From contig JBAXFM010000003.1 of NCBI GenBank assembly GCA_037139855.1, positions 1 to 47,551 on the forward strand: DNA of 47,551 bases. The letters are read 5' to 3'. The translations under genes and the position numbers were made by a program. Shown here piece by piece: positions 1,241 to 16,559 of this stretch (position 1 is the first letter of the stretch; every line of letters begins with the position of its first letter). Source of the DNA: Bacteroidota bacterium (lineage in GTDB: Bacteria; Bacteroidota; Bacteroidia; Bacteroidales; FEN-979). The notes under the pieces are model-generated. The model had not been told where the DNA came from. It did not search any database and worked only from the letters and a program-made list of their open reading frames with translations.

Positions 1241-2641
1241 ATGAATAAATCGAGTGAATTTATTGTAAACGATGAAAGATTAACCTGGGAAAAGGCTTTT
1301 GATGCTATTCCCGACCTGATTGCCATCATCGACAAAGATCATCGCATCGTAAAAGCAAACAAGGCGATGGCCGAAAAACTGCGATGCTCATCCGAAACTG
1401 TTGCAGGCTGCCACTGCTTTGAGGTGATGCATGGTACGCATGAGCCGCCCGATTTTTGTCCACATTCAAGGTTGTTGCTGAGTGAGAATGAAGAACACAG
1501 CGAAGCTGTTGAATCTCGTTTGGGTGGAGTTTACGACATATCTACAACACCTTTGTTCGATAATGAGGGAAGGCTGACCGGAAGCATCCATGTGGCAAGA
1601 GATATCGGCGCTCATCAGAAAAAGGAACAACTGATGGCGGAAAATCTTGCCCTTGCTGACTTCTCTTTGAATCATTCTACCAGTGAACTCCTTACCCGTA
1701 CAATAGATAAAGTTGAATCGCTTACGGGAAGCCAGATTGGTTTTTTTCATTTTCTGGATGAAGATGAAATGACCGTTTCCATGCAGGCCTGGTCGACCAA
1801 CACATTGAATTTCCTGTGTACTACAGAAGGAATTGAAAAACACTATTCAGTGCTTCAGGCCGGGGTATGGGTTGATTGTATCCATGAACGGCGTCCGGTG
1901 ATCCACAACGATTTTGCCAGTCTCCCGCACCGAAAAGGAGTACCGGAAGGTCATGCCACGATTATCAGAGAACTTACCATTCCCGTCATCCGTGGCGAGA
2001 AGGTTGTTGCAGTGATGGGAGTTGGCAACAAACTAACCGACTACGATGAGAATGACATCGAAATTGTAAGTCAATTGACCAACATGGCCTGGGAATACAT
2101 TGTTAGTAAACGTTTTGAAGAAGCGTTAAATAAAAGTGAACAATATGCACGGGCCTTACTGAATGCTATTCCGGACTTGATTTTTCGCATGGACCGTGAC
2201 GGAACATACCTTGATGTAAAGGCTCCAAGGGAGGACTTATACTATCAGACAGATTCAATAATTGGGAAGAACAACAGGGATCTTTCTCCACCTGATTTTG
2301 CCGATCTGATTGAGGCAAAGATCTATTTAACCCTGGAGCATGGAAATATGGAGGTTTTTGAATATGAATTACCATTGCCAGGGAAGGGCATCCGCCATTT
2401 TGAAGCAAGGATGGTGTCAAATGGACCTGATGAAATTACAGCCATCGCACGTGATATTACCGATTGGAAGCAAACAAATGAAGCGCTTAAAAAGAAAATA
2501 GGGGAACTGGAATGGTTTAACCGTATGATGGTTGACCGGGAGGTGAAAATGATAGAATTGAAGAAGGAAATTAACATACTGGCCAACAGACTCGGGGAAG
2601 ATGACCGTTATGTAATACATTTTAATCAAGATATAAAATGA
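1241..2641 (+). CDS. Cytoplasmic PAS-GAF-PAS sensor with conserved C-terminal coiled-coil tail and no output domain
   Basis: PAS (FDAIPDLIAIIDKDHRIVKANKA...HVARDI), GAF (SQIGFFHF...RPVIHND...GVGNK) and PAS (LNAIPDLIFRMDRDG...ARDITD), then ELEWFNRMMVDREVKMIELKKEIN and stop. Confidence 0.85.
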   Translation: MNKSSEFIVNDERLTWEKAFDAIPDLIAIIDKDHRIVKANKAMAEKLRCSSETVAGCHCFEVMHGTHEPPDFCPHSRLLLSENEEHSEAVESRLGGVYDISTTPLFDNEGRLTGSIHVARDIGAHQKKEQLMAENLALADFSLNHSTSELLTRTIDKVESLTGSQIGFFHFLDEDEMTVSMQAWSTNTLNFLCTTEGIEKHYSVLQAGVWVDCIHERRPVIHNDFASLPHRKGVPEGHATIIRELTIPVIRGEKVVAVMGVGNKLTDYDENDIEIVSQLTNMAWEYIVSKRFEEALNKSEQYARALLNAIPDLIFRMDRDGTYLDVKAPREDLYYQTDSIIGKNNRDLSPPDFADLIEAKIYLTLEHGNMEVFEYELPLPGKGIRHFEARMVSNGPDEITAIARDITDWKQTNEALKKKIGELEWFNRMMVDREVKMIELKKEINILANRLGEDDRYVIHFNQDIK

Positions 2642-3732
2642 TTGTTGTCGCATTAATTTTTAACCTTGCAGTTCTCGTTTCAGTCAGTGTTTTTTCTGGT
2701 TTTATTGATAACCGTTATAAACGCAATTCAACTACTGGTGTTGTTTTTCAGGGCTTGCTGTTTGGCATGGTTGCATTGGTTGGGATGCTGGACCCATTCG
2801 TCCTTGCACCGGGGATTTTCTTTGATGGCCGGAGTGTGGTACTCAGCCTCTGCGGGCTTTTCTTTGGTCCGGTGGCTGGTGTGATTTCTGCGGCGATTGC
2901 ATTGGCATATCGGTTATATGCCGGAGGCGTAGGAGTTTACATGGGTGTATCCGTGATTATTTCTTCGACGTTGATCGGGGTGTTTTTTTATTACGTTAAG
3001 AAAGTAACAGGAAAACAGTCTAATACATGGTTTCTTTACGGCCTTGGCTTGATTGTGCATATTGTGATGGTGCTGCTTGTGTTTGCCATTCCCTCACCGA
3101 TGCGTTTGATCACATTTAAAACCCTGACCATTACCATTCTGGGAATTTACCCGCTTGCAACGGTCCTTATAGGGAAAATATTGAAAGATCATGAAAACAG
3201 CGCCGGTCGGAAAATAGCTGAAGCGGCTTTGCTGGAAAGCGAAAACAGGTTTACACTTTTTATGGACCACTTACCCGCTTTTGTTTTCATCAAGGATAGT
3301 AATTTCAAGTCAATTTATGTCAATAAGAAAATAGATGAAATGCTTGGAGCTTCTGCATGGATTGGTTTAACGCCCCCGGAATTTTTTCCGGGAGGATTCG
3401 GCGAAAAACTACTGGCCGACGATCATCATGCCATGGAATCAGGTTATGTGAAAGTAGAAGAAAACCGTCCTGATCTCAAAGGTGTGATGCACTTTTATGA
3501 AACTCAAAAATTCATCATCCCGCGTCAGGGTAAAGAACCATTGCTGGGCGGAATATCCATCGATATTACCGACCGCAAACGTGCCGAGGAGGAACTCAGG
3601 GAGAACACCCGGGAACTCAAGCAGTTTAACAGTCTGATGATTGGCCGGGAGCTGAAAATGGTTGAGCTGAAAAAAGAGATCAATGCATTGCTCATCAACA
3701 TGGGGGAGGAAGAAAAATATGTTATTCATTAA
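2638..3732 (+). CDS. 5TM-5TMR_LYT (LytS/YhcK-type) membrane sensor + PAS with the same C-terminal tail and no output domain
   Basis: Hydrophobic N-terminus with FDGRSVVLSLCGLFFGP...AYRLYAGGVG, a PAS ending ISIDITDRK, then ELKQFNSLMIGRELKMVELKKEIN. ATGA overlap with the upstream gene. Confidence 0.85.
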   Translation: MIVVALIFNLAVLVSVSVFSGFIDNRYKRNSTTGVVFQGLLFGMVALVGMLDPFVLAPGIFFDGRSVVLSLCGLFFGPVAGVISAAIALAYRLYAGGVGVYMGVSVIISSTLIGVFFYYVKKVTGKQSNTWFLYGLGLIVHIVMVLLVFAIPSPMRLITFKTLTITILGIYPLATVLIGKILKDHENSAGRKIAEAALLESENRFTLFMDHLPAFVFIKDSNFKSIYVNKKIDEMLGASAWIGLTPPEFFPGGFGEKLLADDHHAMESGYVKVEENRPDLKGVMHFYETQKFIIPRQGKEPLLGGISIDITDRKRAEEELRENTRELKQFNSLMIGRELKMVELKKEINALLINMGEEEKYVIH

Positions 3733-3748
3733 AAAAATCAGCTGAACC

Positions 3749-5530
3749 ATGAACTCCCTTGAACCTGATAAAAGCATGCTTGCCCTCGCCCTTAAAAGTA
3801 TCGGCAATTGTGTTTGTATTTCGGACCTGAATGACAACATTATCTTCGTCAATGAATCATTTAGCCAAACCTTTGGATACAGTATCGAAGAACTCCGTGG
3901 AAAACCGATCAATGTCGTTCGGTCCGACTATAATGATCCAGAAAAAGTGTCGGTTATTTTTGCCGAAACACTCAAGGGGGGCTGGCGGGGTGAACTCATG
4001 AACCGCAGGAAAGATGGCACGGATTTTCCGGTTAGCGTTGCTACCTCTGTGATACTGGATGACAACGGAAAGCCAATCGCTGTGATGGGGGTAGCCAATG
4101 ATATTACCGAAACCAAGCGGATGCAGGCAAAGTTCAGGTCTGTGGCGGACCTCTTCCAGAATATGGGATCCGATACAACAAAGAATATTGACACAATCGT
4201 AGCCTGTGCCTGCGATGTAATCGGAGGGGCCGCATCTTTGTATAACAAGCTTGACGACACCGACTGTTCCCTGGTGGTGTGGGCTGGTCACAATCTGCCG
4301 TCGGAAATGGAGCGCAGGGATTCACCTGAAGGACACATTTGTTATGAAGCAACCATCAAAGGCCAGGACAAACCAGTTGTATTGGGTGATCTTTCTACGA
4401 CATCCTATGTGAAGTCAGACCCGAATGTTGTCCGGTTTGGATTTCGGTCATACATCGGCGCCCCCGTAAAGCGAAGAGGCAAAGCCATCGGCTCTTTGGC
4501 TGTGGTTGATTTGGTTTCACGTGAATTTACACCTGAAGAAATCGACCTTATTGGGATTCTTGCCAGCGCCCTTTCGCAGGAGGAGGAACGCCAGGATGCT
4601 ATAATGATTCTTGAAACCGCTGTACAACAGTCGCCTTCGGGTATCCTCATCGCCGATGCCCCCGATGTGAAGATCCGAATCGCCAACTCAAAGGCAATCG
4701 CCATCCTGCAAGGTGAGTCGGAAGGTGATACAGATTACGGATTGCATGGCGTTTCACGGTCGTGGACAACTTTCAGGCCCGATGGAACACTCTTATCTTT
4801 AGACCAACTTCCCCTGACACGGGCAATACAATACGGTGAAATTGCAGAAAATGAAGAGTTTATCATCCAAGCTGCGAATGGCGTCGAACATTTTGTTTCT
4901 GTCAATGCAGCTCCCGTAAGAAACACTGAAGGGGTCATCACTGCCGGAGTGGTGATGTTTCACGATATCACTGCCAAAAGACAAACGGAGCAGGAACTTA
5001 GAGAGAGCGAGGATCGGTTGCGGACCCTCATCAATGCCATGCCCGATATAGTTTGTTTCAAGGATGGAGAAGGCAGGTGGCTGGAAGCCAATGATTTTGA
5101 CCTTAAATTATTCGAACTTCAGGGAATAGATTACAAGGGTAAAAAAGATTCAGAACTTGCCCTCGAAAGTGGTTTTTACAAGGAAGCTTTTCTTGGCTGT
5201 GAGGAATCAGATGAAAAAGCCTGGGTCCACAAAGCTGCCTTAAGAGCAGATGAAACTATCCCATGCCCCAACGGACCTTCAAAAGTATTTGACATAATCA
5301 AGGTTCCTGCCTTTGATGAAAAAGGAGCACGGAAAGGATTGGTGGTAGTTGGCCGGGATGTTACCGAACGCATTCATGCTCAAAACGCCCTTCAGCATAA
5401 GGCTAGAGAGTTGGAACGGTTTAATAACCTGATGATTGGAAGAGAATTGAAGATGATTGAATTGAAGAAAGAGATCAATGAATTGCTTATTAAATCGGGA
5501 CATCCTGAAAAATACATGATCCATGAATAA
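3749..5530 (+). CDS. PAS-GAF-PAS-PAS sensor with the same C-terminal tail and no output domain
   Basis: PAS (WRGELMNRRKDGTDFPV...NDITE), GAF (RSYIGAPVKRRGKAIGSLAVVD) and two more PAS domains (FHDITA; GRDVTE), then ELERFNNLMIGRELKMIELKKEIN. Confidence 0.85.
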   Translation: MNSLEPDKSMLALALKSIGNCVCISDLNDNIIFVNESFSQTFGYSIEELRGKPINVVRSDYNDPEKVSVIFAETLKGGWRGELMNRRKDGTDFPVSVATSVILDDNGKPIAVMGVANDITETKRMQAKFRSVADLFQNMGSDTTKNIDTIVACACDVIGGAASLYNKLDDTDCSLVVWAGHNLPSEMERRDSPEGHICYEATIKGQDKPVVLGDLSTTSYVKSDPNVVRFGFRSYIGAPVKRRGKAIGSLAVVDLVSREFTPEEIDLIGILASALSQEEERQDAIMILETAVQQSPSGILIADAPDVKIRIANSKAIAILQGESEGDTDYGLHGVSRSWTTFRPDGTLLSLDQLPLTRAIQYGEIAENEEFIIQAANGVEHFVSVNAAPVRNTEGVITAGVVMFHDITAKRQTEQELRESEDRLRTLINAMPDIVCFKDGEGRWLEANDFDLKLFELQGIDYKGKKDSELALESGFYKEAFLGCEESDEKAWVHKAALRADETIPCPNGPSKVFDIIKVPAFDEKGARKGLVVVGRDVTERIHAQNALQHKARELERFNNLMIGRELKMIELKKEINELLIKSGHPEKYMIHE

Positions 5531-8408
5531 CCTGCGGATTATTTTCGCCATTGTCTCTTGCTGTATATTTGAGCAAGTTGGATTCCCTCAACAATACTTT
5601 ACCAAGTCGTACACCATTGAAAATGGTTTGCCAACCAGAATTGTCAACGATGCCTGTCAGGATAGCAATGGAGTCATGTGGTTTGCTACCTTTAACGGTA
5701 TTTCTTCCTATGATGGATTTCGTTTTACAAATTTTGATGCGAATAATGGTCTGCCCCGGCATTCTTATCGTAAAGTGAAATTTGATCAGGCCGGAGTTTT
5801 ATGGGGAATCCCATATAGCATATGTGATACACTCGTTTGTTTCCATCATGGCAGCTGGAAAAAAATCAATCCTCCCTCCAAAAATCCGAAAATTGAAGTT
5901 TCTGCATTTGATTTATGCACCCGAAACAGACAAACAGTGATATGTATTGGTCATTTTTCCGGACTTGATATTTTGCAGGATGGCCGATGGATTCATGTTG
6001 ATGTTTCAAAAGATCCTTTAAAAAATCAGATATTCTCCGTGATTTCAAAAGATGGAAACTTTCTTGTTCTGACAAAAACCGGAATATGGATATTGGATCA
6101 GGATAAAAATGGATGGGGGATCAAAGAATATTATCTGTCAGCGGGAGATCCAATTCTTGCAATGTATGTTGAAGGGCAGGGTAGAACCGATGAAAAACTA
6201 TGGATGTTAACTTCCCACCGTTTGATGTATCTCATTCATGGGAAGCTGAATATTTTCGCGGATAATTTTAGCCTTCCCGAAACAAATACCCTTGGGAAAG
6301 CCTTTTTGAATTTTGATAACCATGGCAATGTTTACTTTGGAAATAACTTCGGAAAATATTTTATCAGATCAACCGGAAGCAAAGCATTCCCGCTTCTGGT
6401 CAAAAATGGCTTTTCATCAAATGGAGCAGCTGGCCTTTTCATTGACAGGGAGGATAATTTATGGTTTTTGGATTCCCGTGGTGTTGATAAAATTAATAAT
6501 CTGATGGGTTTGAATTATTTTCAAAACCACGGATTGCTAGAAAATGAGGTGACTGCCATCTTAGAACTGGCTAATGGCGGATTTGTATTCGGGCACAACA
6601 AGGGAATCACGGTATTTGATGGTCAAAAATTCACAAGGTTTCCTTTTTCAGTCTCCGATGACATTCAGGCCAGGGTGATGGATATCATCCAGGATAAGCA
6701 GGGAAATGTGTGGATTGCCGCCAGCCGGCTTGGATTTGGAAAGATGATGAAAGATGGGAAATTCAAATGGTATCCGATGGATTCAAATTCACTGGCCGTT
6801 TCGATACACCAGGATCTCCACGGGCGAATTTGGATGAGTTCATCCCAGGAGTTATTCTATCTGAAAAACGATCGGTTAATTCCATATGAACACAACGATC
6901 GGATTAGTTCCCCTTTCAGGAAAATATTTTCTGCCGGGAAGGATGAAATTATCGGAGTAGGGTTGTATGGGGCCTATGTCGTTTCTGAAAATAAGGTGCG
7001 TAAAATACCGTTTGACGGGGAAGACAGAATGATAGGCTTTTTTACCTATTTTAAAAGCAGGTCAGGTATTGAATATTTTGGTACGTCGGAAGGACTTTAT
7101 TTCATGAACAATGGTGCAATCCGGAAGTTTCGCCAAAACGGGATCAGCATTGACAGCCCGGTCTATTTTATTTTTCAGGATACCGATCAGAATTATTGGA
7201 TCGGATCGAACAATGGCGTAATAAAATGGGATGGAAAAACCAGGATTGAAACATTGTCAATAAAAAATGGGTTGGCCGGAAGGGAGACAAACCGCTCAGC
7301 AGGAATGGTTGATTCACATGGGGGTGTATGGATTGGAACAGATATGGGCCTTTCCAGTTTTATGAAAGGATTCTCAGGGTTTAACACCAAGATACCCGTG
7401 ATTAAATTGCTGAATATCGAAGATACGAAAGGAAACCATCATTCATTTATTGATAATATCTTCATCGGATTTAATGATAATACATTGGTTTTCCATTTCA
7501 GAGGCATCTCCTTTGTGAATGAAGAATTAATTTCTTATCGTTACAAACTTGAAGGATTTGATCATGATTGGCAAGTTGCAAATCAGCCGAACCTGGATAA
7601 AATTAAGTTTTCCGGACTGAAACCTGGTAAATACCGATTCATAGTTCAGGCAAGAAATGCTTCCGGCGACTGGTCGGAAATTGCCTGTTCAGGATTCATT
7701 ACCATTAAAACACCGGTTTTCCGGACATGGTGGTTTATCCTGATCGTTTTAATAGTGATTAGTGCTATCATCTTTGGAATTTATAAACTGATATTGCAGC
7801 GTCAATATAATCTGAGGCTGGAAAAGGAGATTTCGGAACGCAAACTGGCAGAGCAACTACTCAGGGAAAGTCAGGAACTGTATAAACTCATTACTGATAA
7901 AATGGCAGATGTGGTTTGGCTGATGGATTTATATGGAAAAAGTACCTTCGTTTCGCCTTCAATTGAGCAATTCACCGGGTTCAGTGTAAATGAGTATTTG
8001 CAGCAAACCATAGAAAATCGGTTTGCTCCCGACTCGGTGGAGGTCGTCAAACGACAGTTCGGGAATGAACTGCCCCGACTCATTGCACAACCGGAATCAT
8101 TGCACGGATACATTAATACGCAAAGGCTGGAATATAACTGCAAAAATGGGGGTACCAAATGGGGTGAATTGCTCATGACACCTCTTTTTGGTCCAAATGG
8201 CGCTTTGCTTGGAATTCACGGGGTTACGCGCGACATCACCGAAGGTAAACAGGCTGAAGAATCGTTGAAGCAGAAAGCTCGGGAACTCGAAAGCTTTAAC
8301 AGCCTCATGATCGGCCGGGAGTTGAAGATGATCGAACTGAAAAAAGAGATCAATGAATTGCTGTTAAAGTTGAACAAACCCGAAAAATACACCGTTCATG
8401 AATTATAA
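5523..8408 (+). CDS. Periplasmic beta-propeller (Reg_prop) + Y_Y_Y + TM + PAS sensor with the same C-terminal tail and no output domain
   Basis: Signal peptide, repeated GL.../QD..G..W propeller motifs, Y_Y_Y (YRYKLEGFDHDW...LKPGKYRFIVQARN), TM (TWWFILIVLIVISAII) and PAS (GVTRDITE), then ELESFNSLMIGRELKMIELKKEIN. Confidence 0.87.
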   Translation: MNNLRIIFAIVSCCIFEQVGFPQQYFTKSYTIENGLPTRIVNDACQDSNGVMWFATFNGISSYDGFRFTNFDANNGLPRHSYRKVKFDQAGVLWGIPYSICDTLVCFHHGSWKKINPPSKNPKIEVSAFDLCTRNRQTVICIGHFSGLDILQDGRWIHVDVSKDPLKNQIFSVISKDGNFLVLTKTGIWILDQDKNGWGIKEYYLSAGDPILAMYVEGQGRTDEKLWMLTSHRLMYLIHGKLNIFADNFSLPETNTLGKAFLNFDNHGNVYFGNNFGKYFIRSTGSKAFPLLVKNGFSSNGAAGLFIDREDNLWFLDSRGVDKINNLMGLNYFQNHGLLENEVTAILELANGGFVFGHNKGITVFDGQKFTRFPFSVSDDIQARVMDIIQDKQGNVWIAASRLGFGKMMKDGKFKWYPMDSNSLAVSIHQDLHGRIWMSSSQELFYLKNDRLIPYEHNDRISSPFRKIFSAGKDEIIGVGLYGAYVVSENKVRKIPFDGEDRMIGFFTYFKSRSGIEYFGTSEGLYFMNNGAIRKFRQNGISIDSPVYFIFQDTDQNYWIGSNNGVIKWDGKTRIETLSIKNGLAGRETNRSAGMVDSHGGVWIGTDMGLSSFMKGFSGFNTKIPVIKLLNIEDTKGNHHSFIDNIFIGFNDNTLVFHFRGISFVNEELISYRYKLEGFDHDWQVANQPNLDKIKFSGLKPGKYRFIVQARNASGDWSEIACSGFITIKTPVFRTWWFILIVLIVISAIIFGIYKLILQRQYNLRLEKEISERKLAEQLLRESQELYKLITDKMADVVWLMDLYGKSTFVSPSIEQFTGFSVNEYLQQTIENRFAPDSVEVVKRQFGNELPRLIAQPESLHGYINTQRLEYNCKNGGTKWGELLMTPLFGPNGALLGIHGVTRDITEGKQAEESLKQKARELESFNSLMIGRELKMIELKKEINELLLKLNKPEKYTVHEL

Positions 8409-8414
8409 TTATTA

Positions 8415-9236
8415 ATGACTACTCAGCAAATCATTGAAAAATTGCAGTTTCAATATGGACAAGATTTTTCTGTTTATGCCACTTCTTTTCTGAGGAATGC
8501 ATTGGGAATAAGAGTAAAGGAAACAGGGTTACCTGGTTTGAACTCTTACCTGGATTTTATTGCCCAGGATAACGATGAGTTGAAAAAATTGACCAATTCC
8601 CTTCATATTAACTATTCCTTATTCTTCAGAAACCTATTGGATACCTCACTATTTGAGTGTTGCATATTGCCTGAACTGATACAATCTAAAGAAAAATACA
8701 ACTCCCGCTCGTTCAGGATGTGGTCGGTTGGTTGTGCAGAAGGCCCTGAACCGTATTCATTCGCCATGCTGGCCGATAAAGTGATCAGCGACAGGCAGTG
8801 CGAGATTCCTGTGATGGTGTTTGGTACCGACATTTCAAGCGCTGCACTCGACAAGGCACGTGAGGGAACCTATGGTGAGCAAGCCATGCAAAATGTAAAA
8901 CTTTCATTCCTCGACCGGTTTTTTGTGCTGAATCAAACACAATATTCAGTGAAGAACCATATAAAAAACCAAGTGTATTTTTCGGAAGGCGATATCATTG
9001 ATCCCTGTTATAATTCACCACCCGCAGCGATCTTTGCTGATTTCGATCTGGTGAGCTGCTGCAATCTGATGATATATTATCAGCAGGAGATTCAACAAAA
9101 GATCCTTGAAAAACTTCACAGGTCACTGGCACAAAATGGTTATTTGCTTGTTGGAGAATCAGAAAGATTGATTGTTGAGAAATTTGGAAAGTTCCGGAAG
9201 TTATATCCTTTGGGAAATGTTTTTATAAGGAAATAA
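8415..9236 (+). CDS. cheR: CheR-family SAM-dependent protein methyltransferase (atypical)
   Basis: Motifs INYSLFFRN, MWSVGCAEGPEPYS, GTDIS..ALDKAREGTY, FDLVSCCNLMIYY and GYLLVGESE. Confidence 0.85.
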   Translation: MTTQQIIEKLQFQYGQDFSVYATSFLRNALGIRVKETGLPGLNSYLDFIAQDNDELKKLTNSLHINYSLFFRNLLDTSLFECCILPELIQSKEKYNSRSFRMWSVGCAEGPEPYSFAMLADKVISDRQCEIPVMVFGTDISSAALDKAREGTYGEQAMQNVKLSFLDRFFVLNQTQYSVKNHIKNQVYFSEGDIIDPCYNSPPAAIFADFDLVSCCNLMIYYQQEIQQKILEKLHRSLAQNGYLLVGESERLIVEKFGKFRKLYPLGNVFIRK

Positions 9237-9420: not shown

Positions 9421-11661
9421 ATGATTAAAATCCTTTCAATTAGCGACAACTCTGATAACTTTGTGGTTCTTAATACGCTGCTCACCACATCCTTCCCTGA
9501 TGTTGTTTTTAGTTCATCACGCTCGGGTAAAACAGGAATTCAACAAGCACGGTCTACAGAACCTGACTTGATTCTGATTGATCTTGAGTTGCCTGATATG
9601 GATGGTTTTGATACATGCCGGTTGTTGAGGGAAGATACACTTTTGCAAAAAGTTTCCGTCATTATTTTAACCACAGAAAAACCAGATACATCAAACCGAA
9701 GCAACGCGTTGCATGCAGGAGCTGATGCGTTTCTCTCCATTCCACTGAACGAAAATGAGTTAATAGCGATTGTTTCAACAATGCGCAGAATAAAACAATC
9801 AGAGGTTCAGGTGACCCAGGAAAGGAAAAAGCTGGAATTGACATTTGAGGAAAGAACCAAAAGGCTTCAGGTACAACTGGATGACTTTAAAAGGACTGAC
9901 CTTGAACTGAAAAAATCATATCATGACCTCGAAATGACCAAACTGGCAACTTTAAACCTGATGGAAGACCTGAAGGCTGAGGTTGATCAGCGAAAGCGAT
10001 CTGAGGAAACGTTAAAGGAAAGTCAGCAGAAATTCATGGATTTGTCAATCATGTTTCGCTCCATCAGCGACAATATGACCGACATGCTATGGGCCAAAGA
10101 TCTGGAAAAGAAATTCATTTTTACAAACAAGTCTGTTTGCGATAATTTACTGCTTGCAACTGATACGGAAGAACCAATCGGAAAAGGCGACCTGTATTTT
10201 GCTTCACGTCAGCGTGAATTGCACACCAACGATCCTGTGTGGCACACTTTCGGTGAACTTTGTATTGATTCTGATCAGGTTGTGATGGATTCAGGAAAAC
10301 CGGAACAATTTGATGAATACGGCAACATTAAAGGACAGTTCATTTTTCTGGATGTCAGAAAATCACCATTGTATGACACCAAAGGGAAAATGATCGGTAC
10401 AGTGGGAAGTGCTCAGGATATCACCAGTGAACGTGAAATGTCAAAACAACTGGCACAAAGCGAACGTCAGTTGTCAACGCTTGTCAGCAACCTTCCCGGT
10501 ATGGTATATCGCTGCATGAACGACCGCGCCTGGTCCATGTTGTTTGTCAGTGACGGGAGTCAATCCTTAACAGGTTACACCAGTGAAGATTTCATCGACA
10601 ATCATAAAGTATTGTTTAATGACATTATTATAGAAGAATACAGGGAGATTGTTTGGAATGAGTGGCAGGTTGCACTTGCCAATGGTGACATGTATGAAGG
10701 TGAATACCCGATCATAACCTCAACCGGGGAGAAAAAATGGGTGTGGGAACGCGGGCGCGGAATATACAATGATCAGGGAGAAGTCCTATATCTGGAGGGT
10801 TACATCGAGGATATTTCAGGCCGCAGAATCGCGGAAGAGGCATTAAAAAAATTAAACAGTGAACTCGAACAACGGGTACTGGATCGCACTGCCCAGCTGG
10901 AGGCATCAAACCAGCGGCTGGAAGCCTCAAACAAGGAATTGGAGGCGTTTTCCTATTCCGTGTCTCACGATTTACGTGCACCTTTGAGGGCCATTGACGG
11001 TTTTACCCGCATCCTGTTTGAAGATTATCTTCCAATGTTTGATGAAGAAGGGAGGCGGGTATGTGCAGTCATCAAGGAAAATGCAGTCCGCATGGGGCAG
11101 CTCATCGACGACCTGCTCTCATTATCCCGGCTTAACCGCACCGACATGCAGATTGACAGGATAAACATGGCAAACCTTTCCAAAATCGTGTATGGAGAAA
11201 TTACCAGTGCCGAAGAAAAAAAGAGAACTGAATTTGAGATGATAAATGTTCATCCTGCATTCGGCGACCATATACTGGTGAGGCAGGTGCTGGTGAACCT
11301 TTTAGGCAATGCTGTCAAATTTACGTCCCAGCGTGAAATGGCAAAAGTTTCACTTTCGTCGGAAAAACAAGGCGATATGGTGGTGTTTTGCGTCAGCGAC
11401 AACGGCGCCGGGTTCGATATGAAGTATGTTGATAAACTTTTCGGAGCTTTTCAACGACTTCACAGTGTGAAAGAGTTTGATGGAACAGGTATCGGGCTTG
11501 CCATTGTTCAACGCATCATTCACAGGCATGGGGGAAAAGTTTGGGCCAAAGGAACAGTTGGTCAGGGTGCGTCATTCTATTTTTCGTTACCTTTGAAAAC
11601 CGGGGAACAAGGTATGATTACGCAGAAGGATTTACAAATAAAAAAAAATGAAACCATTTGA
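9421..11661 (+). CDS. Cytoplasmic histidine kinase: degenerate receiver - coiled coil - PAS - PAS - HisKA - HATPase (Cph1-like transmitter)
   Basis: REC fold ([16 protein letters not shown]), H-box [14 protein letters not shown]-box [10 protein letters not shown]-boxes DNGAGF and GTGIGLAIV. Confidence 0.92.
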
Positions 11662-12100
11662 TCCTGTAGATATCCTCATTGTTGAAGATAATCCTAGTGA
11701 TGCCGAGTTGACTATCAGGGCATTGAAGAAAAGCAATCTGGCAAACCACATCTTTGTTGCAGAGAATGGAGAAGAAGCGCTCGATTTTATTTTTAGCCAT
11801 GGACAATTTGCTGAACGTGACAAATCGAAAACACTTAAAGTTATTTTTCTGGATCTGAAATTACCGAAAATCAGTGGATTGGAAGTTCTTAAAGCAGTTA
11901 AAGCCAATGAATTAACTAAAATGCTTCCCATTGTTATTATTACATCTTCGAAGGAGGATCCTGATATTCAGGAGGCATATGCACTGGGAGCGAACAGTTA
12001 TGTGGTAAAACCTGTTGATTTTGATTCATTCATCCATGCGATTGGGACAACAGGGCTATACTGGTTGCTCATAAACGTTCCGCCAAAAGTAAATGGATGA
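11648..12100 (+). CDS. Single-domain response regulator (Rcp1-like)
   Basis: [27 protein letters not shown] and [11 protein letters not shown]...YWL. Overlaps the kinase stop. Confidence 0.92.
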
Positions 12101-12125
12101 CCATTACCAAAAGCGTATTTTTACA

Positions 12126-13352
12126 ATGACCGAAAACAAAGTATTACAAATTACCCGGGATGTTAGTTGGATCGGAGTTCTCGATCACGATATCGTAACC
12201 TTTGATGTTGTGATGGAGACCAAGCATGGCACTTCCTACAATTCCTATTTTATTGATGCCACAAAAAAGACAGTCGTTGAAACCGTAAAGGAGAAATTCT
12301 GGGATATCTACCTGGCTAAACTTATCTCTTTGGTTAACCCTGCTGAAATCGAATACATTGTTTTAAACCACACAGAACCGGATCACTCAGGTTGTTTGGC
12401 TCGATTGCTTGAAATTGCTCCGAAAGCCAGGGTTGTTGGCAGCGGCAATGCCATCCGCTATCTGAAAGATCTGATTGGCTACGAAATTCCACATCTGATT
12501 GTCAAGGATGGACAGACACTAAGCCTGGGAAATAAAACCCTGCAGTTTGTGGCGGCGGCTAATTTGCACTGGCCCGATTCAATCATGACCTATCTGCAGG
12601 AAGAAAAATTGTTGTTTACCTGCGATATCTTTGGTGAGCATTATTGCAATGCCGGGGTCTTCGATGATGTTGTTGGTGATTTTGACGATGCTTTCCGCTA
12701 TTATTATGATGTAATCATGAAACCCTACAGCAAATTTATGTTGCAGGCCATCGAACGCATCAGACCACTCGAAATTGCAGCCATACTTCCGGGTCATGGC
12801 GCTGTTTTACGCAAGAACTGGAAAAAATATGTAGATCTTTCTGAGCAATATGCACGTGAAGCGCTGAACGGACAGAAACCGAACCGCGTTTTTTTGGGCT
12901 ATGTATCTGCATACCAGAATACAGGGATCATTGCCGGGATGATAGCACAGGGAATAAAGGAGGCAGGCGACTTTGATGTTGACCTTTGCGATATCGAAAA
13001 GATGGATGCCGGCACCATCGAACAAAAAATAACCCAGGCATCCGCCATCGTTTTAGGCTGCCCTACGTTTAGTCAGAACATTCTGTTACCGATTTATCAG
13101 GTGTTTGCCCTGATCAATCCCATCCGCGATCGTAATAAACTGGCTGCGGCATTTGGATCCTACGGATGGAGCGGTGAAGGCGCCAAAATCATGACCTCGG
13201 CCATGAGCAATCTAAAGCTCAGGGTAATAGATGAAGGTTTGATGATCAAATTCACCCCGCACAGTGAAGTGAAGGATCGATGCATTGAGTATGGCAGAAA
13301 ATTTGGTAAACAAATGCTTGCTGGAGAAAAGAGTTTACCGGTGAGGGAATAA
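12126..13352 (+). CDS. fprA: FprA-family flavodiiron protein (O2/NO reductase type)
   Basis: GTSYNSYFI, NHTEPDHSG, LHWPD, FTCDIFG and PGHG metallo-beta-lactamase motifs, plus a flavodoxin domain (FGSYGWSGEG). Start is the ATG at 12126, or alternatively 12093. Confidence 0.9.
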   Translation: MTENKVLQITRDVSWIGVLDHDIVTFDVVMETKHGTSYNSYFIDATKKTVVETVKEKFWDIYLAKLISLVNPAEIEYIVLNHTEPDHSGCLARLLEIAPKARVVGSGNAIRYLKDLIGYEIPHLIVKDGQTLSLGNKTLQFVAAANLHWPDSIMTYLQEEKLLFTCDIFGEHYCNAGVFDDVVGDFDDAFRYYYDVIMKPYSKFMLQAIERIRPLEIAAILPGHGAVLRKNWKKYVDLSEQYAREALNGQKPNRVFLGYVSAYQNTGIIAGMIAQGIKEAGDFDVDLCDIEKMDAGTIEQKITQASAIVLGCPTFSQNILLPIYQVFALINPIRDRNKLAAAFGSYGWSGEGAKIMTSAMSNLKLRVIDEGLMIKFTPHSEVKDRCIEYGRKFGKQMLAGEKSLPVRE

Positions 13353-13399
13353 TAAATTTGATTTTTTTCAGTTATCAATTTCTCAAAGAAACCCATCCT

Positions 13400-14251
13400 G
13401 TGGTGAATTTTAACAGATACACGTTTTTATCAGGATTGTTGATCCTTGCGGGCCTTGTAAGTCTGCAATCCTGTTTGCCCGAACGTAAAGTCGCCAACAC
13501 ATTTATCCAGTCGCAACACATGATTACGTTGCTGGTTAACCCGCCTGCAATCGTTTTTAAGTACAATCACAAAGGTGAGGCGATCGAGAGATTTGATTCT
13601 CTGTCGCAAGCACAGCAGGATTCAGCGCTTTGGACCCAAAGCAGCTACATTCAGTTTATCAATGACAGCACGTTGCTCGAAAACTATATGAACAGTTTCA
13701 TCGAAGAATTGCGACTGCTAGGTTTTAACGTGTACCTGAATAGTTCCATCGATTCATTTAATGCGGTGAAACCACAATCCTACATCCTCAATGTTGCCCA
13801 GATCCAGGTGGATGAGTATTATTATCCCCTGAAGGATGAAGATGCTTTTCTCGATACAGTTTACTATAAGGAATTCAATTTGAATGCTGTCGACTTCAGT
13901 TGCTGGTTCGATCTGAGTAAAGCCGGTACAGAAACTTCAAGGAAAGCGCTGCTTTATGCCACCAATACTGCCTATGATACCTTTGACGGCCGCTTTTTCA
14001 ATGATCCGTTTTCAGGAACGGTGCGATATAAATATACCATCGACTCCCTCAAAACCAAAGATGTATATGACATGGCCACCTACCTTGGGAAAAAACATGC
14101 CGGATATCTTTACGACTTTTTTATGAATCAGTACATTGCAAAGCACCTGCCTGAAGGGATAAAGATGGAGGATTATTATCACTATAACCGCATCAGGAAA
14201 AGTTTCAATCCAGCTTATGATGAAAGGTTCGAAATTCTGGGAACAAAGTGA
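13400..14251 (+). CDS. Hypothetical lipoprotein
   Basis: Open frame 13358-14251 with a hydrophobic stretch and lipobox (LVSLQS-C). The start is uncertain (GTG at 13400 or 13403). Confidence 0.65.
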   Translation: MVNFNRYTFLSGLLILAGLVSLQSCLPERKVANTFIQSQHMITLLVNPPAIVFKYNHKGEAIERFDSLSQAQQDSALWTQSSYIQFINDSTLLENYMNSFIEELRLLGFNVYLNSSIDSFNAVKPQSYILNVAQIQVDEYYYPLKDEDAFLDTVYYKEFNLNAVDFSCWFDLSKAGTETSRKALLYATNTAYDTFDGRFFNDPFSGTVRYKYTIDSLKTKDVYDMATYLGKKHAGYLYDFFMNQYIAKHLPEGIKMEDYYHYNRIRKSFNPAYDERFEILGTK

Positions 14252-14323: not shown

Positions 14324-15025
14324 TCATGGATTTTCGATTCTCAGACGGTATCCTACTGCAGGCTCTGTAATGAGTATTACAGGGATCGATGGGTTTGATT
14401 CGATTTTCTTCCGTAGTTGTGCTATGTGAACTCTGAGAACCTGGGAATTGTCGGCATACGGGTTTCCCCATATCTCCCTGCAGATGTGTGAATGAGTCAG
14501 TACCTTGCCGCTGTTACGCATGAAAAGAGCCAGTAAACTATACTCTGTGGCGGTAAGCCTCACCTCTTCACCATTTACTTTGACGATTCGTGCGTTTCGG
14601 TCGATCCACAGAGCACCGATGGCCAGAACCGGCGATTCATCAGTTTTCAGTGTGTGGCGTATTGCAACACGAATGCGCGCAACCAATTCACCGGTATTGA
14701 AAGGTTTGGTTACATAGTCATCAGCTCCATGGTCAAGTGCATCAATTTTAATCCATGGATCATCCTGCACAGTAATAACGATCACAGGAACAGTTGACCA
14801 TTCACGCAATTGTTTTAAGGTGACAAGTCCATGCTGGTCAGGAAGTCCCAGGTCGAGCAATACAACATCGGGCTTGTTCATGGAGAGTTCGAGCAGTCCT
14901 GCGTGACTGTTTTCTGCCTCAATCACCTTGAATTGATTTGCTTCCAGGGTGATCCGTAAAAGCCGGCGAATCTGAGGTTCATCATCAATGATCAGAACCT
15001 TGTATTTGTTCCTGTTTAACTCCAT
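14324..15025 (-). CDS. kdpE: OmpR-family response regulator, KdpE-like
   Basis: VLIIDDEPQIRRLL, LLDLGLPD, LREWSTVPVI, ALDHGADDYVTKPF and a wHTH ending LRVHIAQLRKKIE..P...ITEPAVGYRL. Confidence 0.85.
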   Translation of the reverse strand: MELNRNKYKVLIIDDEPQIRRLLRITLEANQFKVIEAENSHAGLLELSMNKPDVVLLDLGLPDQHGLVTLKQLREWSTVPVIVITVQDDPWIKIDALDHGADDYVTKPFNTGELVARIRVAIRHTLKTDESPVLAIGALWIDRNARIVKVNGEEVRLTATEYSLLALFMRNSGKVLTHSHICREIWGNPYADNSQVLRVHIAQLRKKIESNPSIPVILITEPAVGYRLRIENP

Positions 15026-15041
15026 ATTCGTACTTTGATTA

Positions 15042-16559
15042 TTAGATTAGCCCATTCTTTTTGAGTATCTGCTCCGCTTTTTCATTGGCTTCTTCGGCAG
15101 GAAATTCCAAGGTGATGCAAAGCCCTCCGCCTGCCTGGTTTATTGCCTTTACGGTGCCATTGTGTGCCTCAGTGATAGCTTTGGTGATGGTAAGGCCAAG
15201 ACCGGTGCCTCCACTGTTCGAACCAGGCACCCTGTAAAACTTGTTAAATAGTTTAGCCAGTGTTGTTTCGGGAACTCCCGGCCCCTGGTCAGCCACGGCG
15301 ATGGCAACTTTGTGTGGAGAAACGGAATATATCGTAATGACGATCGGTGTCCCGGCAGGAGCATATACAGCAGCGTTGTGGATCACATTGACAAGTGCCT
15401 GGACCAGGAGGCTGACATCACCCTTAATGGGCGAAACTTCTCCTGTTACCACTACCTCAGGCGTATGTTCCTTCAGCTCATGTTCAAGGGTATGCAAAGC
15501 CATACCAACGAGATCATCCGGATCACAAACCTGAAAATTTAACCTCATCCGCCCTGATTCGATTCGCGACATGTCGAGGATGTTCTCGACCAGGAAATTC
15601 AATCTCTTTGCGGCTGATTCGAGTTCTCCGGTTATCTGTCCCCTGATTTCGGGAAGTTCCGAGGTGACAGGGTCCTGTAAATTTGAAACTGCTGCAGAAA
15701 TGATCGCAATTGGCGTGCGCAATTCATGCGAAACGCTGTTCAGAATTGTATCGAAGAGCTTATCAGATTCCTGGGATATTTCCCTTACTTTGGCAAGATC
15801 TACGCTGATCTCGCGTTCGAGTGCAGAAGTTACCTAGGCAATAAAACTGTACATGAGTGATTGGGTTTCCTCATTGGGACGGATATCATCATCGAACCGG
15901 ATCCCGATTACCCCAAAGATACCACGGGGGTCTTTCAGCGGATAGAAGCCTGAAGATAGTTCATTAGGTTTCAGAAATTGTTGTGAAGCAGATAGATAGG
16001 TTTTGTCGCCGAAAAGATTTGCATTTCCAAAAGCTCGTTGGGAAAGTAAATTTCCACCTTTTTCTTGTAGAAAAATGACGATATCACTCTTGAAATGATG
16101 TTGAAAACTATCGCATGTGCGCTTTACAACATCTTTTATAGAGGTAGCATTGTTAAGTGATTCCAGAAAAGTGTTCAAGGCTTGCAATCGTTCGCGGCTT
16201 CGTAAAAGGTCATACTGACTTTTTCTGATCCGTGTAATAAGGGTAGCGCCTACCAACGCTACCATCAGGTTCGCAATGAGTGAGATGACATCATGTGCCC
16301 TGTGGATGTGAAAGGTAAAAACAGGCGGAATAAAGAAAAAATTCCATACGGCTGAGGAGACCAGCGCCGCAAAAAACACAGCACCACGACCCAGTATCAG
16401 AGAAAGCAGTGAAATGACCACCAGGAATATTAACCCGACAGCCTGATATCCGATCAACGTGGCTACAGGGAAACAGGAGGCCACAACGAGGATCACGACG
16501 GTTAGTGCAATAAAGTAGTCTTTCGGACTGGAACGCATGGCGTGGTTACCCATTTTCAT
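15042..16559 (-). pseudogene. kdpD: Short KdpD-like sensor kinase (DUF4118 TM - GAF-like - HisKA - HATPase) interrupted by an in-frame TAG at 15836-15834
   Basis: The 16559-15834 ORF has DUF4118 motifs (AVWNFFFIPPVFTFHI). The same frame continues SFIA*VTSALERE...LNSVSHELRTP into the 15722-15042 ORF (DQGPGV, FYRVPG, GGTGLGL). Confidence 0.8.

Follow-up and report, generated by a model that had tools for sequence, protein, structure and literature searches.

How does a sensor protein that lacks a catalytic output pass its signal on? The question arises for thousands of prokaryotic "PAS domain S-box proteins" and single-domain-like response regulators in which no output can be recognised. The same question is posed by a Bacteroidota bacterium (assembly GCA_037139855.1), of which positions 1–47,551 of contig JBAXFM010000003.1 (forward strand; the whole stretch is referred to here as the window) were analysed. 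Four tandem genes on the + strand, at 1241–8408, encode sensors 1 to 4, each of which ends, on translation, with the same C-terminal tail of ~45 amino acids (aa), and no catalytic domain was found in any of the four with Pfam and NCBIfam. We find that this tail is a discrete, unannotated output module, widespread at the C-terminus of sensors and receivers that lack a kinase, and we propose that it couples them to histidine kinases that carry a helix with an L-N-L motif (LNL kinases), one of which is encoded in the window. A preliminary description of the window had already drawn attention to the tail; the finding is real and of greater extent than that description held, which had noted neither the partner motif of the window kinase nor the link to the CheR gene.

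The four tail peptides read exactly as first quoted, and all of them lie at the C-terminus (Table 1). Their four-way alignment has 20 invariant columns, which include the EL, FN, M, RE, KM, ELKKEIN, Y and H previously listed as invariant. Selection at the protein level, also claimed earlier, is borne out by comparing the copies over the 39 codons shared by all pairs of the four tails. Amino-acid identity is 56–79% and nucleotide identity 58–74%; each pair has 22–31 codons with the same residue, 8–16 of which differ in codon, and the crude proportion of synonymous differences (0.55–0.98) is near saturation, compared with 0.13–0.31 for non-synonymous differences. The 100 residues upstream of the tails share just 19–28 identities per pair, so that what is conserved is protein sequence, and that of the tail alone. 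Two further copies are found in the same genome outside the window, on contigs C92 and C25, each adjoining kinases.

The tail is a long amphipathic helix (ELExFNxLMxGRELKMxELKKEINxLL) followed by a Gly turn and a short xxKYxI stretch. In a logo of 345 unique tails, R17 and K25 are conserved at 100%, E18 at 99%, N29 and L24 at 98%, L31 at 96%, Y41 at 95%, E27 at 94%, F10, M21 and G36 at 93%, E23 at 92% and N11 at 90%. The helix is hydrophobic at heptad positions a (7, 14, 21, 28, 35) and d (10, 17, 24, 31) and at part of the b positions, and the invariant R17 itself occupies a d position. The preliminary description had considered that the motif might prove to be a generic coiled coil, which it is not, because the polar residues R17, E18, K25 and N29, at surface or core-polar positions, are kept in 98–100% of the 345 tails. 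Together with the hydrophobic a, d and b positions, these invariant residues fit a multi-helix interface.

A tail profile (A3) built from 21 sequences was searched against 1.84 billion proteins, with clusters at 50% identity as representatives. At E ≤ 0.001 it matches 15,101 representatives, from both Bacteria and Archaea, and at E ≤ 1e-10 there are still 3,416. Neither Pfam nor NCBIfam covers the tail, and the best match of the profile among PDB sequences, the E2F4 coiled coil (E 0.016), is not meaningful. A scan of one genome per species gave more than 521 matching stretches, from which 78 loci were kept. The bacterial loci come from Bacteroidota, Chloroflexota, Pseudomonadota, Desulfobacterota, Verrucomicrobiota, Planctomycetota, Omnitrophota, Acidobacteriota and Caldisericia, and the archaeal loci include Methanoregula, Methanosarcinales, ANME-2, Methanophagales and Halobacteria. 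Searches of part of the journals for the tail or LNL motif strings found no paper on either, and keyword searches returned papers on chemotaxis and on LOV proteins.

In 169 of 169 retrieved proteins a tail is found at most 30 residues from the C-terminus, ~20 of these proteins having a second, internal copy, and a hidden Markov model (HMM) identified 92 tail open reading frames (ORFs) in 77 of the 78 loci, 91 of which end no more than 30 residues past the tail. The domains that precede the tail are PAS, GAF, REC, 5TMR-LYT, PocR, Y_Y_Y and CheB-CheR fusions, and HisKA or HATPase_c was found on none of the 120 tail proteins listed. Proteins that consist of REC and tail (one on C92 of the same genome, and P0044, P0199 and P0228) indicate that the tail serves a receiver domain as its output. 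CheB-CheR fusion proteins can also end in the tail (P0197, P0233, P0217, L042, L064). The earlier suggestion of a "small interaction or output domain" thus holds in the general sense of a discrete C-terminal module on sensor and receiver proteins without catalytic output.

Histidine kinases encoded just downstream of tail genes share a second unannotated element, a helix of the form ...EL(x5)A-x-L-N-[LM]-[LM]-E-D-[LA]... with invariant N and D, located after an N-terminal REC or HAMP domain and before a PAS domain or the H-box. Proteins found with a profile of this LNL helix are the mirror image of the tail proteins, with HATPase_c in 83 of 89; some LNL kinases have no PAS domain. The tail and the LNL helix have no detectable homology to each other (profile-profile probability 1.2%) or to the DHp. 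Gene order was counted in the 52 loci with at least 6 kb of downstream sequence (full loci), 45 of which contain a kinase, within 1.2 kb in 41. An LNL-helix protein is present in 35 of the 52 by HMM or strict motif. A relaxed motif, broad enough for the AIMNIAVDI variant found in dCache-HAMP kinases, gives 38 loci with the helix; in every one of these it follows the tail gene on the same strand at a distance of no more than 5 kb, and in 23 of no more than 500 bp. The relaxed motif has 52 matches in 0.415 million aa of the loci, compared with 6 in 1.9 million aa of ORFs from the genome of the window. A common cassette comprises one or more tail genes, a CheR of ~275 aa, a 4HB_MCP-HAMP-GAF-HisKA-HATPase-REC-REC kinase of ~1000 aa and a REC-coil-PAS kinase, while in loci without CheR a dCache-HAMP or PAS kinase directly follows the tail gene.

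The strict LNL pattern has three matches in the whole 5.57-Mb genome, two of which are the true helix, in the window kinase and in a protein on contig C109 (C109:13264-13440, − strand, in a 599-aa frame). The third, in a CheR gene on C109, was judged to be unrelated. The C109 LNL protein shares its contig with the single methyl-accepting chemotaxis protein (MCP) of the genome, a CheR and a CheB, so that the LNL helix is also linked with a cluster of chemotaxis-like genes.

Among 301 sampled genomes of the phylum, 40 have the tail, and 34 of these belong to a single family, f22 (63 genomes). The LNL profile matches six of the 301, all of them tail-positive, with both elements on the same contig and no more than 5 kb apart. 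The f22 tail is internal: each of the 33 complete ORFs (the 34th is cut by a contig end and is outside this count) encodes a coil, PAS, tail, linker, QRxALLNLVEDA helix, coil and HisKA-HATPase. The preliminary description had reasoned that homologues continuing into a catalytic domain would make the tails truncations. Such continuation is found in f22 only, where it is a fusion with a complete kinase and no truncation is involved. The f22 linker, of 40–80 aa, is hypervariable in length and composition, and AlphaFold2 (AF2) models of the fusion give it a predicted local distance difference test (pLDDT) score below 50, with ~90 for both helices. The tail is modelled as one long helix, and an 80-residue helix starts at the LNL motif and continues into DHp helix 1. 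A Foldseek search of the PDB with the PAS-plus-helix model returned PAS/LOV proteins only. As a PAS signal cannot pass along a disordered linker, the simplest reading of the f22 fusion is that the tail acts on the kinase by non-covalent docking.

Gene order, the complementary distribution of tail and kinase domains, and the natural fusion together make us highly confident that tail proteins are functionally coupled to LNL kinases. The reading that we favour, and consider somewhat more probable than its negation, is that the tail is an output or docking helix which couples kinase-less sensors and receivers to LNL kinases, with CheR as an optional accessory. The tail would take the place of a catalytic output on kinase-less PAS, GAF, REC and CheB-CheR proteins, and the tail helices of a sensor dimer would dock on a cognate input helix (...ELxxxxxA-x-L-N-L-M-E-D-L...) that continues into the PAS or DHp coiled coil of the kinase. 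Two tail and two LNL helices could then form a helical bundle, in trans for separately encoded proteins and in cis in the f22 fusions. In the window, four sensors with cytoplasmic PAS/GAF, 5TMR-LYT membrane and periplasmic propeller inputs would feed one REC-LNL-PAS-PAS kinase, and the adjoining CheR may methylate conserved Glu residues of the bundle. The LNL helix is the putative docking site because it co-occurs with the tail, and we put the chances of direct helix-to-helix docking at about even; methylation of the tail-LNL assembly by a dedicated CheR is plausible.

Several observations weigh against this docking proposal. No LNL helix is near the tail gene in 14 of the 52 full loci by the relaxed motif, although two of the 14, L012 and L078, are positive in the screen by HMM or strict motif. 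Five genomes with an LNL-less tail locus were searched throughout: two gave no match anywhere, two gave weak matches only and one gave two strong matches, these being metagenome-assembled genomes for which completeness is unknown. The f22 fusion is a functional link and not necessarily a physical docking of the tail and LNL helices. Neither of two AF2 monomer models (with PAS, predicted template modelling score 0.43; without PAS, 0.37) places the tail relative to the kinase helices. A wide fold search with the fusion model matched residues ~90–208, the DHp hairpin, at Z ≤ 9.6, a range common for helical models, and left the tail helix uncovered. Co-variation between tail position 14 and the third LNL residue was set aside as evidence. 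By hand count, a partner with a non-L residue (LN[MVI]) goes with Ala at tail position 14 in 10 of 10 loci, and a partner with L goes with a non-Ala tail in 15 of 17, but the pattern follows clades and could thus reflect co-inheritance. Complex predictions with two tails and two LNL helices gave ipSAE values of 0.03 and 0.20 against a mark of 0.32; they were run without controls and speak neither for nor against binding.

A broader form of the docking proposal, which we regard as possible but rather doubtful, treats the tail and the LNL helix as a universal plug and socket of prokaryotic two-component signalling, in which any tail-ending sensor or receiver could be wired in trans to any LNL kinase, with many-to-one input (as for the four sensors and one kinase of the window) and daisy chains. 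In about a third of systems a dedicated CheR, joined by CheB in fusion proteins, would methylate the four-helix bundle so formed. Daisy chains are conceivable because some proteins carry both socket and plug. In proteins such as P0030, L074:14167-15615, L067:540-3818 and L028:4519-6591, either an LNL-type helix is combined with a tail at the C-terminus, or a tail inside the chain precedes a linker and an LNL-like helix, which suggests relay chains or fused sensor units.

The CheR gene of the window invites a different explanation, in which the tail is mainly a methyl-accepting or CheR-docking helix, with CheR, and CheB where there is one, methylating and demethylating its conserved Glu residues and the C-terminal KYxIH acting in the manner of the pentapeptide tether of receptors. 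PAS sensors would thereby gain an adaptation segment like that of chemoreceptors. A CheR gene occurs in 20 of the 52 full loci, mostly 0–270 bp downstream of the tail gene and on the same strand. The window CheR is 32–57% identical (151–335 bits) to 22 tail-adjacent CheRs from several other phyla and one archaeon. Its identity to the other four CheRs of its own genome is 24–31%, and it scores 90–132 bits against CheB-CheR fusions and MCP-cluster CheR (92 bits for the MCP-cluster CheR of its own genome). The tail-adjacent CheRs form a subgroup that travels with tail genes. That some CheB-CheR fusions end in the tail, and that the genome has five CheR domains and one MCP, fits this explanation as well. 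(Three CheB-CheR fusions are located on C21, C310 and C41, and the sole MCPsignal match on C109.) No CheR was found in the other 32 full loci, however, and a dependence of the tail on CheR at the genome level was rejected: CheR matches are absent from 15 of the 40 genomes that have the tail, and the rate of 25 in 40 is close to the background of 162 in 301 (lists compared by hand), so CheR is better regarded as an optional accessory. The tail also lacks the small-residue-flanked EE/EQ pairs of receptor sites, and CheR stands with an LNL kinase in 19 of the 20 loci, which gives it the look of a supplement to the pair of tail and LNL helix. CheR cassettes moreover offer a better-looking substrate, namely a heptad coil rich in E and Q (ELEAQKxELxxQSxELxEQNTELEMQKKQL) that immediately precedes the H-box of the ~1000-aa 4HB_MCP-HAMP-GAF kinases encoded after CheR (L007:11013-14003, L040:10932-13934, L084:10763-13747 and ~18 other loci). 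By its appearance this coil is a candidate methyl-accepting segment, and one that belongs to a kinase, not to a chemoreceptor. The substrate of CheR could be the tail-LNL bundle or, in the larger cassettes, the E/Q coil; since the window and L008 keep CheR without a 4HB_MCP kinase, the tail proteins or the LNL kinase stay candidate substrates. On balance, a primarily methyl-accepting role for the tail seems unlikely.

An equally improbable explanation would reduce the tail to a homo-oligomerisation cap, a terminal coiled coil that stabilises sensor dimers or tetramers without a specific partner, with signalling by other routes, for example by PAS-PAS heterodimerisation with the kinase. The clear a/d heptad pattern, the modelled extension of the usual PAS C-terminal linker by the tail helix, the known dimers among the short LOV proteins matched by Foldseek, which have a C-terminal helix alone, and the failure of the structural predictions to support a hetero-complex are all compatible with a cap. 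Yet if the tail were only a cap, R, E, K and N would not have stayed invariant in both Bacteria and Archaea, and a cap leaves unexplained both the tight gene order with LNL-bearing kinases and the f22 fusion with the LNL motif. Since the tail also follows REC, GAF and CheB-CheR, and some of the LNL kinases are PAS-less, PAS-PAS pairing cannot be general. The preliminary description had proposed a mimic of DHp helix 1, and we accordingly considered a degenerate, His-less DHp helix 1 acting as a decoy or inhibitor within, or capping, the kinase DHp bundle. This we hold to be very improbable. The ELExF entry is common to the tail and to the H-box of the window kinase and its relatives, and structural look-alikes of the tail in the ESM Atlas include HisKA helices, which is trivial for a single helix (feature scores ≤ 0.86, single-helix matches, no lead). 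Comparison of the tail with the H-box region by hhalign, however, aligns 7 columns around ELExF at a probability of 3.7%, and Pfam HisKA (PF00512) gives no match on the four tails even at E ≤ 10. When the two are aligned on ELExF, the H-box His position of the tail is occupied by Gly (79%) or Asp (15%). In AF2 models the tail is one helix followed by the chain end or a disordered linker, with no second-helix hairpin of the DHp type. The H-box types of the partner kinases vary and the tail is constant; it is the LNL helix, not the H-box, that tracks the tail.

Table 1. Coordinates of the tail-bearing sensors and associated features in the window, and of the two further tail proteins of the genome
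Feature	Location	Strand	Description
Sensor 1	1241..2641	+	466 aa, PAS-GAF-PAS; Pfam PAS_4, GAF_2, PAS only
Tail copy 1	2504..2620	+	ELEWFNRMMVDREVKMIELKKEINILANRLGEDDRYVIH, in sensor 1
Sensor 2	2638..3732	+	364 aa, 5TMR-LYT membrane domain and PAS (Pfam)
Tail copy 2	3613..3729	+	In sensor 2
Sensor 3	3749..5530	+	593 aa, PAS-GAF-PAS-PAS (Pfam)
Tail copy 3	5408..5524	+	In sensor 3
Sensor 4	5523..8408	+	961 aa, Reg_prop/Y_Y_Y propeller, transmembrane segment, PAS (Pfam)
Tail copy 4	8283..8399	+	In sensor 4
Stand-alone CheR-type methyltransferase	8415..9236	+	273 aa; Pfam CheR (2.5e-43) and CheR_N
Proposed partner kinase	9421..11661	+	746 aa; REC, coil, PAS, PAS, HisKA, HATPase
LNL helix of window kinase	9862..10041	+	Between REC and first PAS; no Pfam family over it
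ATLNLMEDL motif of window kinase	9946-9972	+	Inside LNL helix
Single-domain response regulator (REC)	11648..12100	+	Closes signalling cassette; same position in L008, L011, L012
C92 tail protein	Own genome, contig C92		REC and tail, 215-aa frame
C25 tail protein	Own genome, contig C25		PAS protein, 604-aa frame

The stop codon of sensor 1 and the start codon of sensor 2 overlap (ATGA, 2638–2641), and the genes for sensors 3 and 4 have 8 bases in common (5523–5530), which fits translational coupling of the four sensors. The gene order around the window kinase is also found in related loci. The response regulator gene is followed, at 12093–14251 (+), by genes for a flavodiiron-like protein of 419 aa, with ODP/metallo-beta-lactamase and flavodoxin domains, and for a protein of 297 aa that matches nothing in Pfam. 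Both genes keep their position in L007, L008, L011 and L012 (fused in L012), which makes their products candidates for the operon's regulated or sensing end. Further along, a KdpD-like kinase at 15042–16559 (−) is split into a DUF4118 ORF (15834–16559) and a HisKA-HATPase ORF (15042–15722) by one in-frame stop (...SLMYSFIA*VTSALERE...), with an OmpR-type regulator adjoining at 14324–15025; the split may represent a pseudogene, a sequencing error or read-through.

The analysis defines a portable output module of 45 aa, with over 15,000 sequence clusters in Bacteria and Archaea, together with a candidate receptor helix on histidine kinases and natural fusions that link the two, and both the tail and the LNL motif merit family models in domain databases. 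If docking is correct, it would account for the input of kinase-less sensors into kinases, and partners could be predicted from sequence. It would also give a candidate substrate context to many non-chemotaxis CheR and CheB-CheR genes, and provide a small natural connector for engineered multi-input kinases. Should the plug-and-socket form with CheR methylation also hold, ordinary histidine kinases would have a chemotaxis-like adaptation without a chemoreceptor.

Among known systems, short LOV proteins such as PpSB1-LOV and PpSB2-LOV are the nearest structural neighbours of the PAS-plus-helix model in Foldseek. They resemble sensors 1 to 4 in having a sensor/PAS core, a C-terminal helix and no effector domain, and they are described as lacking obvious signal-transduction domains (PMC4416707). 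Their C-terminal helix differs from the tail motif, as the PDB sequence search gave nothing meaningful, and the tail, unlike that helix, also occurs on REC, GAF and CheB-CheR proteins and has a genomically linked partner motif on kinases. A family of short LOV or effector-less PAS proteins cannot, for this reason, define the tail.

The HAMP domain and the antiparallel four-helix adaptation bundle of chemoreceptors contribute two helices per subunit to a dimeric bundle that relays the signal to a kinase-controlling coiled coil. The principle proposed for the tail and LNL helices is alike, and CheR is genomically associated with the tail. Pfam HAMP (PF00672) and MCPsignal (PF00015) give no match on the tail, however; MCPsignal likewise gives none on the four sensors, and HAMP none on the LNL region. 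The two helices of HAMP are joined within one chain by a connector of ~14 residues, whereas the tail and the LNL helix lie on separate proteins or are separated by a low-confidence linker of 40–80 aa. Receptor methylation sites are Glu/Gln pairs flanked by small residues. In the tail logo there is no EE, EQ or QE pair with A/S/T/G flanks, and the conserved Glu residues stand in RE, xEL and KKE contexts.

The S-helix, reportedly described by Anantharaman, Balaji and Aravind in 2006, is said to be a ~40-aa amphipathic coiled coil beside sensor domains with conserved polar residues. It links two domains in one chain, whereas the tail ends its protein or, in f22, is followed by a disordered linker; their sequence signatures also appear to differ. 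Sensor kinases can also be modulated by separate non-catalytic proteins, as are KinA by Sda and KipI, FixL by FixT and WalK by YycH and YycI. These modulators are individual and lineage-restricted, whereas the tail is a portable 45-aa module carried on many domains in Bacteria and Archaea.

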